A stretch of 46,343 nucleotides of DNA from Candidatus Nomurabacteria bacterium RIFCSPLOWO2_01_FULL_41_18 (GCA_001785865.1 MFUZ01000008.1:1-46343); one strand, 5' to 3'. Shown: positions 27,665-33,502, counted from the stretch's first letter. Notes: a model not told the origin generated them from the letters alone. Program-made: numbers and translations.

Positions 27665-29680
27665 TTATTCATTATCAAAGCTAAAAGCAATAGCATAGTT
27701 GCCTTCTGGAAAACGTATTTGTGGCAACCATATTTCTTCACCTTTATGACTTGGTTTTAATTTATACATAAAAAGTGTTACAGCGTCTTCAGGTACTAAC
27801 TTATCCTCACCTCCAGAATAATATCCCTGAGTTTCCTTACGAGGCGCGTTAAGATTAAAGCCTCTTTTAACCCTAATATAGGCTTTTTTTCCTCTCAAGG
27901 TTTTTATTTTTTCAAGTGCTGCTCTTAGAATTTTAAGGTTCCATAATTTAGCACCTTCTTCTGGATCGTGAGCACATTTCTCTATTATTTCTATAACAGA
28001 ATCAATGTCTGTTTCATGATAATTTTTAACACTATCGTAACTAGCTAATTTATTATCTAGCCACTTTGTTGATGTTTCTGTATCTTTAGTACGAAGAGGA
28101 TACCTTTGGTTACACCACCCTCCCGCAACATAAATACCGATTGAGTTTGTATCTAAAACATTAGACCGGGTTGTTTTTAAAGGGGAAGAAATGTAAATAC
28201 CCTCAAATTTTCCTTCAGGATGTTTTTCAATTAGCTTTCTTAGGGCTTTTTCCATTTGATGAATTATGCGAAAATGTTCTGCTAACTTTTCAGGTAAAAA
28301 TAGGCGTGTTACCCCAATATGTCTTTCACGATATCCATACATACGTGCGTGTTGAAGTACCGTATCAGAATTTGGATGCTTGGGATTTCTTCCGTAATAG
28401 CTAGTAATAAGATTAGGAATAGTTACACCTCTACCAAGTTTATTGCCACCCACAAAAATACTATATACATGATCTAGCGTAATGGCTTCCTCTGAATTTG
28501 AATTAATTTCTTTTATGCTTGCTCCAGGTAGAAGAAACTCAATTCGTTGGAGTATTTTTTCAAATTCTGGAAGTACTGGTTCGGTCTTAGTAATGTCATT
28601 ATAGGCAACAAATAATTCGTCTCTTAATTTTTTAAAGGCAGTGGAATCTTTATTTTTAAATGCAATTACAATATCTTCTCTGAAAGAATCAATAAGATTT
28701 ACAACATGTTTATGATCAACTTTAGTATGACTAATGTGGCAAAGAAAGGAGAAATTTTCACTAGGATAATTAATATTTCTAGCCGTAGCAGCAATTAAAA
28801 AACTTAGAACAGCTTCTTTTAATCCTACTGGTATTTTATGTGTTGGATTTGGTTGAAAACCAGATTTTAATTCATCAACTTCGTCTATATCAACGTTACG
28901 CAAAAGTTTTGATTCCGATTCAAAAAATGCTTCGCCACCTATATAGCCTGGTCCTGGTTCACTTAAAACTGTAAACGAGGGACGGTAAAGTCCATTTGGC
29001 GTTTGTAAGAATAGAGCCTGCGGAGTTGCTGTTACTTGAAGATATGTATTGATTTGGAAAAACTGCCTTATTTCAGTTATATATTTATTTATAGCACTAA
29101 GCTCCTCAGTTCTTTTTTTAGCATTTTTATTTGTTTTAGTATTTAAGCTTGCCTGGTCAGCCTCGTCATCAATTATTAAAGTAGGAAGACCACGAGATCC
29201 ACTAGATCCAACTTTTTTAAAAGCATCTATTAAATTTTTTAGATGACTTGAATTTTTTGAACAGACAATAGCGAAAGGAGACATTCTTATTTGTCGTTCA
29301 AATCTAGGAAGGTCTTCCCAGTCTGACTTGCCGAGAACAGTTAATCCTCTAAGTTGACTACGAATTCTCTGAAGTGTTTGTCCATATAAAAGATTTATGT
29401 CGGAAGTTAATATGATTATACATTTAAAACCATTATCAGCAGCCATTGCAGTTGTTACAGTAATGATACTGGTTTTACCACTTTGAATTAAACCGTAAAG
29501 TAAGCCATAACTCGGTTCTGTTGATCCAGCAATTGGATCCACTGCATAACCTAAAATTTTACCAGCACGTTCAACAATTGCATGTAAAGACGCTTCTGTT
29601 TTTATTTCATTGGAAAGAACATCTAAAGCTTCTTTAGTTTGCAAGCCATCGTGAATTATTTTTCTTGAGTTTATTTCCAT
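27665..29680 (-). CDS. SF2-helicase/Z1-domain putative restriction protein
   Basis: GLIQSGKT Walker A, DDEADQAS Walker B, VGGNKLGRGVTI, QHARMYGYR. Confidence 0.8.
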   Translation of the reverse strand: MEINSRKIIHDGLQTKEALDVLSNEIKTEASLHAIVERAGKILGYAVDPIAGSTEPSYGLLYGLIQSGKTSIITVTTAMAADNGFKCIIILTSDINLLYGQTLQRIRSQLRGLTVLGKSDWEDLPRFERQIRMSPFAIVCSKNSSHLKNLIDAFKKVGSSGSRGLPTLIIDDEADQASLNTKTNKNAKKRTEELSAINKYITEIRQFFQINTYLQVTATPQALFLQTPNGLYRPSFTVLSEPGPGYIGGEAFFESESKLLRNVDIDEVDELKSGFQPNPTHKIPVGLKEAVLSFLIAATARNINYPSENFSFLCHISHTKVDHKHVVNLIDSFREDIVIAFKNKDSTAFKKLRDELFVAYNDITKTEPVLPEFEKILQRIEFLLPGASIKEINSNSEEAITLDHVYSIFVGGNKLGRGVTIPNLITSYYGRNPKHPNSDTVLQHARMYGYRERHIGVTRLFLPEKLAEHFRIIHQMEKALRKLIEKHPEGKFEGIYISSPLKTTRSNVLDTNSIGIYVAGGWCNQRYPLRTKDTETSTKWLDNKLASYDSVKNYHETDIDSVIEIIEKCAHDPEEGAKLWNLKILRAALEKIKTLRGKKAYIRVKRGFNLNAPRKETQGYYSGGEDKLVPEDAVTLFMYKLKPSHKGEEIWLPQIRFPEGNYAIAFSFDNE

Positions 29681-29689
29681 AGTATAAAT

Positions 29690-30118
29690 TTAATACTTAA
29701 CTACTTCAGATACAATATTAGACCATCTTCTGACTGAAACCTTACCCTTAAGTTTAGAAATAGACCCTGCAACTCCGTAACTTTTATTATGCTTTCTTTG
29801 TACCGAAATCCACCCAGGATTTGTACTCAAAAGAGATCGAGCTTCCTTCCACGTTAACGCACAAACTCCATCTCCACCACAAACTAAACCTAAAATTACT
29901 GTACTGTATTCTGACTCCATCTTCAAGCATCGATCAATATCTTCTTGGTCAAAACTAAATCTCCAAGGACTTCGAGCTTTTGTGGTGTATTTTAAAAAAA
30001 CAAATACTTTTTCATTAACGACATATCCCAGTAGCCCTTTTTTCTTAACCGAAAAATTCTCGTTTTCAAGTAAAGCTACTATGGCAGCACCGTGATAATA
30101 TTGCAATTTATCTATCAT
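29690..30118 (-). CDS. Hypothetical protein in methylase/Z1 operon
   Basis: 142 aa, co-oriented, overlaps upstream AbrB-like gene. Confidence 0.7.
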   Translation of the reverse strand: MIDKLQYYHGAAIVALLENENFSVKKKGLLGYVVNEKVFVFLKYTTKARSPWRFSFDQEDIDRCLKMESEYSTVILGLVCGGDGVCALTWKEARSLLSTNPGWISVQRKHNKSYGVAGSISKLKGKVSVRRWSNIVSEVVKY

Positions 30119-30299
30119 ATTTTTTCAATTTCCAATCTTTAATTATAATTTTCGTGCCTTCCAGTTTCACCACCACCTTCTGCCTCTCGCGCCAGCCGAG
30201 CTTACGAGCAAAATCGATAGGTAAAGTCACAGCAAGTGATGACTTGCCGACTTTGGTTATCTTCCTTATATTGCTACTGCCAGATTTTGTGATTCCCAT
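30108..30299 (-). CDS. AbrB/MazE-family DNA-binding protein
   Basis: RKITKVGKSSLAVTLP..FARKLGW...VVV pattern. Confidence 0.8.
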   Translation of the reverse strand: MGITKSGSSNIRKITKVGKSSLAVTLPIDFARKLGWRERQKVVVKLEGTKIIIKDWKLKKYDR

Positions 30300-30492: not shown

Positions 30493-30503
30493 TTGAATTT
30501 TTT

Positions 30504-30575
30504 TGCTCTACTTCACCCCGCCTAAGTTAGGCGGGGCAAGCTGAGCCCTGCCTGCCGGCAGGCAGGTATAACGGC
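30504..30575 (-). pseudogene. tRNA-Thr 5' fragment with two palindromic insertions
   Basis: GCCGTTATA-[CCTGCCTGCCGGCAGGCAGG 30547-30566]-GCTCAG-[CCCCGCCTAAGTTAGGCGGGG 30516-30536]-AGTAGAGCA. Confidence 0.75.
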
Positions 30576-30592
30576 ATACTACCCAAAAGCCA

Positions 30593-30668: not shown

Positions 30669-30895
30669 ATTAAACTTTTCAAAAACTCCTTACCAAAACC
30701 CGATTTTAATAATTTCTCTCTCTTTCTTGCCTCTCCACGACTTAAAACTTCTTCTGTATATAACAACTCCCATGGACGATGTATTTTGGTAGAAAAAACA
30801 TATCCACTATTGTGCTCTTTGAATCTTCTCATGAGGTTATTGGTCATACCGACATAAACTCTTTTTTCTTTATTTTTTAATGCATACACTATCAT
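30659..30895 (-). CDS. Small GIY-YIG nuclease whose stop codon lies in tRNA-Thr(GGT)
   Basis: IVYALK...VYVGMT, RE..LKSG; ends ATG CCG TTA TAG; ATG 30895 preferred over 30961. Confidence 0.85.
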   Translation of the reverse strand: MIVYALKNKEKRVYVGMTNNLMRRFKEHNSGYVFSTKIHRPWELLYTEEVLSRGEARKREKLLKSGFGKEFLKSLMPL

Positions 30896-30904
30896 AAAGT
30901 ATTT

Positions 30905-30945
30905 TACCAACTGAGCCCTGCCTGCCGGCAGGCAGGTACAACGGC
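30905..30945 (-). pseudogene. tRNA-Thr-like 5' fragment with 20-bp palindrome
   Basis: GCCGTTGTA-[palindrome 30917-30936]-GCTCAGTTGGTA. Confidence 0.75.
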
Positions 30946-32140: not shown

Positions 32141-32162
32141 ATGCGCGATCGACCGGACTTGA
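32141..32162 (-). repeat. 22-bp duplication of tRNA-Asp 3' end (att-like)
   Basis: ATGCGCGATCGACCGGACTTGA identical to 32423-32444. Confidence 0.85.
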
Positions 32163-32425
32163 GGGTCAAGTTTCTAAGTCGCTACGCTCCTAAGAACTTC
32201 CTCCTTACAGGAGCAGTACACCTTTTCGACTTTTTATTTCGCATCCTCGTAAAAATTCAGAAAAGGTCTTGCGAAGTGATTTATATTACTTCTCACCCCG
32301 GGCTCGCCTCAGCCAAAGGCTGATGGCTCCGCTTGTTCAAGCCGGACGCAAGCAAAGCAGTTTGCTTGCTTTCTCTCGCGATGTAAAAAGAAAAAACTGG
32401 CCCGAAGCCAGCATTTCTTTTTATG

Positions 32426-32709
32426 CGCGATCGACCGGACTTGAACCGGCAACCTCGTCCGTGCACTTATCCAATATTTTCATAAAGGCGTGGACTATAT
32501 CTTCACCGTAAGCTTTCGCCCTTAGGTGCTTTGGTATCTAGTCTCTACGGCGCCCCCGACACATTATCGGGGTTCCCTCGGTATTCGCATGCTCTGATTT
32601 TAATCAAAGTTTAGCCTTCACCGATATCCCAAAGAGTTTCAACCCCACTTTAGCGAGGAAGCTGCAGTAATCTACAGGGACGCGCTCTAACCAGTTGAGC
32701 TACGACCGC
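32426..32709 (-). tRNA. tRNA-Asp(GTC) split by an intron in the anticodon
   Basis: Exon 1 32709-32674 ends CCCTGT, exon 2 32463-32426 starts CACGGACG; joined loop CT-GTC-AC; G discriminator. Confidence 0.92.
32464..32673 (-). ncRNA. Group I intron (210 nt, no ORF) at tRNA position 35/36
   Basis: Exon ends in U, intron ends in G; P1 CUGU/AG pairs with CUGCAG giving U.G at splice site; AGAGACUA and GAAGAUAUAGUCC core motifs. Confidence 0.9.
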
Positions 32710-33371
32710 ATCTTGGCTATATAACCCTCAAACTTATCCTTCTTTCTTTTTAGAAACAAGGTACATGTATCATTATACATAATTTTGTATAAAATCAAAG
32801 AGTCCCCAATGCTATATTTCAAATCAAATCCTCTTTCTTTTTGAACCAAAGAACCTCCTAAAATTTCATATTCAGATAAAACTTCTTTTAAGGCTATTAA
32901 AAATTCTCTACTCCCTGAAGTAAATGCAGTGCTTATAGCATAAATTTTATGTATTCTTTTCTTATTTTTAAAACCAACCCACACTCCACCATCTCCATCA
33001 AAATAACCTCGTAAAAAATCAGGGAAATATTTTTTTGGTACTTTTGGTAGTAAAATTGTTTTACTTTTTCTTTCTGTTAAGCCAAGATGCATCAAATCTT
33101 CACACATCTCTTTGCTTCCAACTTGCAAACGATACGATTGCCCTTGATTATTATATATTTTCTTTTTTGAGATAACGTGTTCTGAATTCAGTACCTTTTT
33201 TATTTCTTCAAGAATATCTTTGTCATTAATTTGTAATGACCAAAACCATGTATTTCTTTTCGTGCAAATTATATTTCCATCGGCATATATAAAACCCAAG
33301 ACATACGCCATTTCAGTATTCCACTTTTTGAAAAAATCTTTATTTATTTTTTTATAAATAGGCACATACAT
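32700..33371 (-). CDS. Free-standing double-motif LAGLIDADG endonuclease
   Basis: AYVLGFIYADG and FLRGYFDGDG; ends ATG CGG TCG TAG inside tRNA-Asp. Confidence 0.9.
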   Translation of the reverse strand: MYVPIYKKINKDFFKKWNTEMAYVLGFIYADGNIICTKRNTWFWSLQINDKDILEEIKKVLNSEHVISKKKIYNNQGQSYRLQVGSKEMCEDLMHLGLTERKSKTILLPKVPKKYFPDFLRGYFDGDGGVWVGFKNKKRIHKIYAISTAFTSGSREFLIALKEVLSEYEILGGSLVQKERGFDLKYSIGDSLILYKIMYNDTCTLFLKRKKDKFEGYIAKMRS

Positions 33372-33381
33372 ATTATACCAT

Positions 33382-33411
33382 GTGACAGGACAATATACTA
33401 ACCACTTATAT
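33382..33411 (-). pseudogene. Decayed intronless tRNA-Asp 5' fragment (D arm to anticodon loop)
   Basis: ATATA-AGTGGTTAG-TATAT hairpin; TGGTTAG-N8-CCTGTCAC has the same spacing as the spliced tRNA-Asp. Confidence 0.6.
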
Positions 33412-33429
33412 AAACAAGATATAAGGTTG

Positions 33430-33502
33430 TGTCGGCGACAGGGATCGAACCTGTGACCTGAGGCTTATGAGTCCTCCGCTCTACCGACTGAGCTACGCCG
33501 AC
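33430..33502 (-). tRNA. tRNA with CAT anticodon (elongator Met or Ile2)
   Basis: Cloverleaf, loop CTCATAA, paired 1:72. Confidence 0.9.

Follow-up and report, generated by a model that had tools for sequence, protein, structure and literature searches.

The 46,343-nt window analysed here (GCA_001785865.1 MFUZ01000008.1:1-46343, positions counted from its first letter) is contig C8, one of the nine contigs of the ~750-kb genome of Candidatus Nomurabacteria bacterium RIFCSPLOWO2_01_FULL_41_18. It carries a free-standing LAGLIDADG endonuclease gene joined to the 5' end of a tRNA-Asp gene, which is itself split by a group I intron devoid of an open reading frame (ORF). A copy of the D-loop and anticodon-loop letters of tRNA-Asp, held at their original spacing, stands just upstream of the endonuclease gene and recurs there across homologous loci. 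From sequence comparisons, we think it on balance probable that these parts belong to one system, in which a homing enzyme attacks ordinary tRNA-Asp genes, the intron shields the resident gene and the upstream copy serves as a target-mimicking operator.

A tRNA-like motif upstream of an endonuclease gene joined to tRNA-Asp

The locus lies on the minus strand, as do all coordinates given for it, and reads in the order tRNA-Met, GGTTAG-N8-CCTGTCAC (33403-33382), TATAAT, LAGLIDADG gene and tRNA-Asp(GUC) (32709-32426). The first block of the upstream motif, GGTTAG (33398-33403), consists of the D-loop letters of canonical tRNA-Asp genes, and the T preceding it also matches (TGGTTAG, 33404-33398). 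An 8-nt AT-rich spacer, TATATTGT (33390-33397), takes the place of AGC and the 5' strand of the anticodon stem. The second block, CCTGTCAC (33382-33389), is the uninterrupted tRNA-Asp anticodon loop and spans the intron insertion site CCTGT|CAC. When the upstream copy is compared with spliced tRNA-Asp, which reads ...CAACTGGTTAG-AGCGCGTC-CCTGTCAC-GGACG, both blocks and the 8-nt spacing are exact, 0/8 middle bases match and the match ends after C38. The block letters equal those of canonical tRNA-Asp at 14/14 positions with the same spacing, and they are exactly the letters that are invariant among canonical tRNA-Asp genes. Four nucleotides after the motif (ATGG) comes a -10 box, TATAAT (33372-33377), followed after 6 nt by a GTG start codon that is kept in relatives. 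From this GTG the gene spans 32700-33365; counted from an in-frame ATG upstream, at 33371, the ORF has 223 codons. Its TAG stop (32702-32700) is also U8-A9-G10 of tRNA-Asp (tRNA start 32709), the last codons and the stop being tRNA positions 1-10. Blocks, spacing, shared TAG and intron-bearing tRNA-Asp are all as described in the original prediction, which a model had made from this DNA alone.

That prediction had staked itself on the upstream match recurring at homologous loci, and it does: a scan of 88 unique homologous loci from Patescibacteria, allowing at most one mismatch per block, placed the motif just upstream of the homologous gene in 46, against a chance expectation of ~1.8e-4 per locus. 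It occurs a single time in the 750-kb genome, and on these two grounds a chance match was rejected. Nine or ten of the 13 closest homologues have the motif at the same place, and the full layout, GGTTAG-N8-CCTGTCAC-N4-TATAAT-N6-(G/A)TG, is found in 33/88 loci. Across 30 aligned loci the blocks hold 1.5-2.0 bits per position, a value inflated by the selection of these loci at no more than one mismatch per block, and the spacer, 78% A+T, holds 0.1-1.2 bits. The motif is also retained at loci where the D loop of the resident tRNA differs (L004, L005, L007 and L013). The upstream copy had been described as a relic with a D-arm hairpin. The match to tRNA-Asp is real, but a displaced piece in decay does not describe it: no neutral relic would outlast median terminal branches of 0.5 changes per site. 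Whatever its origin, the motif must therefore count as a part of the cassette that is conserved and does work, located at its promoter. The hairpin proved to be only TATA/TATA in AT-rich sequence, with pairing that is not conserved, and a tRNA-like RNA fold of the motif was rejected, its stem positions being unpaired (TTGTC vs ATGGT).

The 221-aa protein is an intact double-motif LAGLIDADG enzyme. It matches Pfam LAGLIDADG_3 (E 1.4e-11) and carries the two motifs YVLGFIYADGNI and FLRGYFDGDGGV (cores FIYADG and FDGDGG), in which D31/G32 and D125-G128, including the catalytic aspartates D31 and D127, are invariant among 19 homologues from four tRNA-linked classes. An AlphaFold2 model (pLDDT 91, pTM 0.88) and a Foldseek search of the Protein Data Bank (PDB) reveal the tandem alpha-beta-beta-alpha-beta-beta-alpha LAGLIDADG fold, with 132 matches at E <= 0.001, the best being I-Tsp061I (2DCH, E 4.5e-11), I-AniI, bI3 maturase and I-SceI. 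A PDB search by sequence alone was weak (2DCH, E 0.019), and the family was settled by the fold search. The enzyme is monomeric, two-domain and free-standing, encoded in neither an intron nor an intein. Enzymes of this family cut specific sites of ~20-24 bp and produce 4-nt 3' overhangs. Like it, I-Tsp061I, I-DmoI, I-SceI and I-AniI have two LAGLIDADG motifs per chain of about 220 amino acids in the same fold, and they use ~22-bp targets, the candidate site here being 22 bp as well; unlike it, they are encoded inside introns or inteins, and sequence identity to them is only ~20%.

The tRNA-Asp(GUC) gene consists of a 5' exon (32674-32709, positions 1-35) with the canonical sequence GGTTAG-AGCGCGTC-CCTGT, a 210-nt intron (32464-32673; Rfam RF00028) between anticodon positions 35 and 36, and a 3' exon (32426-32463, positions 36-73, discriminator G) that completes the acceptor and anticodon stems together with the 5' exon. 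The claimed intron is genuine, and it contains no ORF. In its P1, CUGU|AG pairs with CUGCAG and a U.G marks the splice site; the P3-P7 core is conserved and a terminal G precedes CAC. The intron's score against Rfam Intron_gpI (38.4 bits, E 2.4e-7) is under the gathering score of 50. Homologues at 71-87% identity are present in 13 relatives, and an intronless canonical tRNA-Asp allele is found in genome G003 (GGTTAGAGCGCGCCCCTGTCAC). ARAGORN, run on the 750-kb genome, finds tRNAs for all amino acids but Asp. The split gene is the genome's only tRNA-Asp, and the intron must therefore splice. Group I introns have been reported in some tRNAs of circularized genomes, mostly from the Candidate Phyla Radiation (CPR) (Lui et al., 2021). 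As a separate observation, in loci L125 and L126 (G135 and G437) an ORF that is HNH-like by eye stands before related group I introns found at other genes; ORF and intron may form another free-standing nuclease-intron pair.

Putative target sequences and resistant alleles among relatives

Homologues of the enzyme are found in 23/61 relatives and in 30/401 genomes sampled from the class, and a scan of GTDB species returned >546 relatives in Patescibacteria. Each of the 13 closest homologues among the 61 relatives (49-66% identity) has a CAU tRNA on one side and tRNA-Asp on the other and ends at the tRNA's TAG; the Asp-class gene is always joined to the 5' end of tRNA-Asp. At most homologous loci a CAU tRNA occupies the same upstream position as tRNA-Met(CAU) does here (33429-33502; ARAGORN and Rfam tRNA, 68.8 bits), where a 25-nt AT-rich spacer separates it from the GGTTAG block, and it is the probable left homology arm of the cassette. 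The gene is patchily distributed and horizontally mixed across Patescibacteria, the sporadic pattern of homing endonucleases: taxa are intermixed on the enzyme tree, whose median terminal branch is 0.5 changes per site, and pseudogenes, truncations and remnants of the gene occur among relatives.

Among more distant homologues (26-42% identity; L014-L028 and L033), the neighbourhoods that we inspected all adjoin tRNA genes, nearly all of the endonuclease genes lying directly upstream. The tRNAs concerned are tRNA-Cys(GCA), tRNA-Leu(UAG), tRNA-Leu(GAG) and probably tRNA-Ser(UGA). One of these homologues is truncated, and L019 has tRNA-Leu(CAA) upstream, with no tRNA detected downstream. The ORF of the tRNA-Leu(UAG) enzyme extends 13 codons into the tRNA before it stops.

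Among the 61 relatives, tRNA-Asp contains the exact uninterrupted GGTTAG-N8-CCTGTCAC in 27/45 genomes without gene and intron, and in 0/13 of those with an intact or pseudogenised gene (p = 7e-5). We assembled a wider set of 75 intact genes beside tRNA-Asp, in which the gene is paired with an ORF-less intron at 43 loci and has an intronless neighbour at 32 (~40%). The 5' part of the tRNA is canonical in 29/43 intron-bearing neighbours vs 3/32 intronless ones (p = 3e-7). Seven of the 32 intronless neighbours have one extra D-loop base, GGTTAG-T-AGC, which shifts the two blocks one step apart; this variant arose at least four separate times on the enzyme tree and is seen in 0/401 class-sampled genomes, even at one mismatch. 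These comparisons support the view that uninterrupted canonical tRNA-Asp is avoided next to intact genes. They are the marks that would be expected of an enzyme reading both blocks at fixed spacing, with hosts or cassettes escaping through the intron or a change in the D loop. With 32/75 intact genes adjoining an intronless, otherwise deviating tRNA-Asp, the intron would therefore be only one route to immunity.

The original prediction had further proposed that enzyme and intron occur together and spread together. In the 61 nearest genomes, 10/12 intact Asp-type genes adjoin the intron (Fisher p = 6e-7), which bears out the co-occurrence; of the four remaining genomes with the intron, G031 has a pseudogene, G016 a gene deleted at its N terminus, G051 a C-terminal remnant and G053 no gene. 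A class-wide BLAST search with the intron was of no use for co-occurrence, many of its matches being related introns at other genes (L125-L132). Joint spread may hold in part: the two co-occur closely at short range, but they do not form a fixed unit. On the enzyme tree intron state needs 23 changes, at least 11 of them forced, and clusters no more than shuffled labels do, and the intron is found without the gene at G053 and G293. Joint spread would therefore hold at most over short times.

In the scheme that we propose, the enzyme would recognise ~22 bp in an ordinary tRNA-Asp gene, spanning D loop to anticodon loop, a target predicted from the promoter motif and from the sequences that neighbouring tRNA genes avoid. 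It would cut alleles without the cassette, and repair would copy the cassette in. The resident gene would escape because its CCTGT|CAC block is split by the group I intron; escape in other genomes would come from changes in the D loop, an extra base among them. The promoter motif would be bound and left uncut because its central 8 bp differ, and would act as an operator keeping expression low, like the homing-site-like operator of I-TevI. Its probable origin is a 5' piece of the target gene that was duplicated and then kept by selection. The comparative evidence supports such a collaborative-homing reading. Besides the loose coupling of enzyme and intron, several observations weigh against it. 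Four intact genes adjoin an uninterrupted tRNA-Asp that is canonical in both blocks (L086, L103, L121 and G219). Set against the class-wide background of 371 genomes, 84 of them canonical, there is weak depletion (p about 0.05-0.11). The association of the intron with a canonical exon could owe something to the exon having been co-converted along with it, and of the predicted 22-bp site the intron changes no more than the final 3 bp.

The promoter motif as a candidate operator

A sigma-70 scan did not call a promoter for the endonuclease gene, because no -35 hexamer reaches 4 of 6; we propose one here from the conserved TATAAT-N6-start layout. Ahead of the conserved start no Shine-Dalgarno sequence is visible, and the same layout predicts that the mRNA is probably leaderless. 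At about eight loci the promoter takes another form, which we call type B: TATAAT lies within the N8 spacer and the start codon directly follows CTGTC(AC), the tRNA-like letters being kept despite their changed position relative to the -10 box. Enzymes associated with tRNA-Leu(GAG) and tRNA-Leu(UAG) have the D-loop and anticodon-loop letters of their own tRNA at the equivalent upstream place. Since the fixed blocks differ by class, each matching its own tRNA, they are hard to take for generic sigma-factor contacts, and they would easily be explained as sites read by each enzyme.

This arrangement is reminiscent of I-TevI, whose operator overlaps its promoter and has 15/20 identity to the homing site; the enzyme binds the two equally well but cuts the operator ~100-fold less (PMC2988022). 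By this analogy we predict that the motif is a target-mimic operator, a proposal on which we are close to evenly divided. Here too, sequence overlapping the promoter resembles the predicted homing site and differs from it exactly where cleavage would depend on it. According to PDB titles, LAGLIDADG enzymes have been crystallised with 'uncleavable' DNA in which the central four base pairs alone are changed. I-TevI and its type are GIY-YIG enzymes of intron-encoded phage genes, whereas the gene here is a free-standing chromosomal one of the LAGLIDADG family, and binding and repression are proven for I-TevI and predicted here. Another feature of the locus bears on expression: with the stop codon lying within the mature tRNA, RNase P cutting of a read-through transcript would strip the endonuclease mRNA of its stop, and such stop-codon loss could act as a further brake.

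The alternative that survives best treats the motif as a passive relic, that is, a displaced 5' half of tRNA-Asp left by insertion of the cassette after position 38 and kept as promoter sequence, unbound by the enzyme. The match does end right after the anticodon loop. The D-loop letters of the Leu classes, TTGGTA, look like a -35 box, and their distance from TATAAT in the Leu(UAG) class is 17 nt; against this, the Asp-class blocks are 21 nt from the -10 box, a distance that does not suit a -35 element, and type B loci keep CTGTC(AC) although the -10 box has moved into the spacer. The spacing in the Leu(GAG) motif exceeds by one base that of every tRNA-Leu(GAG) seen, this genome's own among them, as would result from an indel in a relic, and 33/88 loci manage without either form of the motif. 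Both facts count against an operator, as does the tRNA-Cys class, in which only an ordinary TTGCAA-17-TATAAT promoter was seen. Mimicry thus extends to other enzyme classes only in part: Leu(UAG) fits, Leu(GAG) has the +1 spacing and Cys showed the ordinary promoter only. A passive relic, on the other hand, sits poorly with fixed blocks that are class-specific and match each class's own tRNA, and no acceptor-stem or D-stem remnant is found in any locus. We regard it as unlikely.

A second TATAAT (32772-32777), within the endonuclease reading frame and 62 nt before tRNA-Asp, is probably the promoter of the tRNA. It lies inside Met-Tyr-Asn codons near the C-terminus, and this conserved MYN is encoded as ATG TAT AAT in 62/62 homologues (32772-32780 in the window), where their own codon use predicts 60%. 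The MYN-encoded TATAAT persists in spacers from which the gene has been deleted (L035/G003 and L030/G033). A terminator-like hairpin follows tRNA-Asp (32396-32412). The tRNA's TATAAT box embedded in coding sequence, together with long residence at one locus across the whole radiation, would suit a domesticated regulator that no longer homes, binding the tRNA-Asp gene and its own promoter and tuning tRNA-Asp expression. We hold this to be very improbable: the gene's patchy occurrence, its pseudogenes and its horizontal mixing are in keeping with a selfish element, the enzyme keeps its catalytic residues, and resident tRNA genes avoid the sequence held in the promoter motif. Least probable of all is that the protein is kept as a maturase, helping the tRNA-Asp intron to fold and splice as I-AniI and bI3 maturase do and playing no role in mobility, for although both of those proteins are among its best structural matches and gene and intron co-occur strongly in the genus, 32/75 intact genes stand beside an intronless tRNA-Asp, related classes adjoin intronless tRNA-Leu and tRNA-Cys genes, four intron-bearing relatives are without an intact gene, and both catalytic aspartates are invariant.

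Known homing systems and neighbouring elements

Collaborative (trans) homing, which underlies the reading that we favour, is known from phages, where the free-standing F-CphI acts with the ORF-less psbA intron of cyanophage S-PM2 and MobE of T4/Aeh1 with the nrdB intron (PMC3984707, PMC2790892). In those systems the target overlaps the site of intron insertion, and the intron protects the resident allele, both of which are predicted here. F-CphI and MobE are phage enzymes, HNH or Endo VII-like, whereas the present one is a LAGLIDADG protein of a CPR bacterial chromosome with an essential, single-copy tRNA gene as its putative target. Here, unlike in the phage systems, the ORF is fused to the 5' end of the target gene, immunity would also be reached without an intron, and cleavage is a prediction. 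T4 SegB offers a further parallel, being a free-standing homing endonuclease gene among tRNA genes that is thought to drive inheritance of the tRNA region (PMC2330249); it is a phage GIY-YIG gene without ORF-tRNA fusion, intron partner or promoter mimic, all three of which the present locus has. Literature searches found no paper describing such an arrangement. If the homing reading is right, it would explain the spread and persistence of ORF-less group I introns in CPR tRNA genes and the odd tRNA-Asp D-loop variation in these genomes, and it would carry collaborative homing and autorepression through a homing-site mimic beyond phages, into a cellular lineage and into the LAGLIDADG family. Such a locus would also provide a natural set of enzyme, target, uncleavable operator and resistant alleles, useful for understanding and engineering meganuclease specificity.

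A broader proposal, which we put forward tentatively and consider rather doubtful, is that Patescibacteria host a guild of LAGLIDADG 'cleave-and-rescue' cassettes on essential single-copy tRNA genes. Each cassette may cut the common tRNA allele and bring a resistant one, intron-split or with an extra D-loop base, and may throttle itself through a target-mimic operator. With the tRNA promoter inside the cassette ORF, the host may be able neither to lose the resistant allele nor to delete the gene cleanly. Such a guild, if it exists, would be a natural, self-regulated gene-drive and addiction module on tRNA genes.

The original prediction had also drawn a parallel with a GIY-YIG gene elsewhere in the window. 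The shared layout holds broadly: the TAG of that gene (30661-30659) is U8-A9-G10 of tRNA-Thr(GGT), and 9 nt before its ATG stands a 5' piece of tRNA-Thr, made up of GCCGTTGTA, a 20-nt palindrome and GCTCAGTTGGTA. The breakpoints differ, the tRNA-Thr piece covering positions 1-21 vs ~17-38 for the tRNA-Asp piece. Two tRNA-Thr 5' fragments (GCCGTT[A/G]TA ... GCTCAG) are in fact present on the minus strand, at 30500-30580 and 30895-30945, each split after position 9 by the palindrome CCTGCCTGCCGGCAGGCAGG; one is the piece 9 nt before the GIY-YIG start, and the other lies between two tRNA-Thr genes, with a second hairpin. Beside the tRNA-Thr genes is an operon (27665-30299, minus strand) that encodes a Z1-domain protein (Pfam Z1, E 1e-38), a protein of 142 aa that matches no family and one resembling MazE/AbrB, and which looks like a defence-type island.

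Two further elements touch tRNA-Asp itself. A 22-nt direct repeat of the tRNA-Asp 3' end (TCAAGTCCGGTCGATCGCGCAT; 32141-32162 and 32423-32444, minus strand) flanks 260 bp that fold well (z = -4.3) and form a mosaic of short repeats, multicopy in related genomes, on which ground a second intron or a known RNA was rejected. The flank after the distal TCAAGTCCGGTCGATCGCGCAT copy is the flank that follows tRNA-Asp in G051, from which it follows that an element entered the T loop and supplied a new 3' end in place of the old one. In relatives, at L008 (G001, ~1466-1590) and L034 (G002, 540-620), 17 nt of the tRNA-Asp 5' end are present as a copy, GCGATCGTAGCTCAACT, after which come ~85 nt containing a CCGCC..GGCGG hairpin and a full tRNA-Asp; the endonuclease is present in G001 and absent from G002. 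This stretch marks a further small element, one that inserts in the D loop and restores the 5' end.

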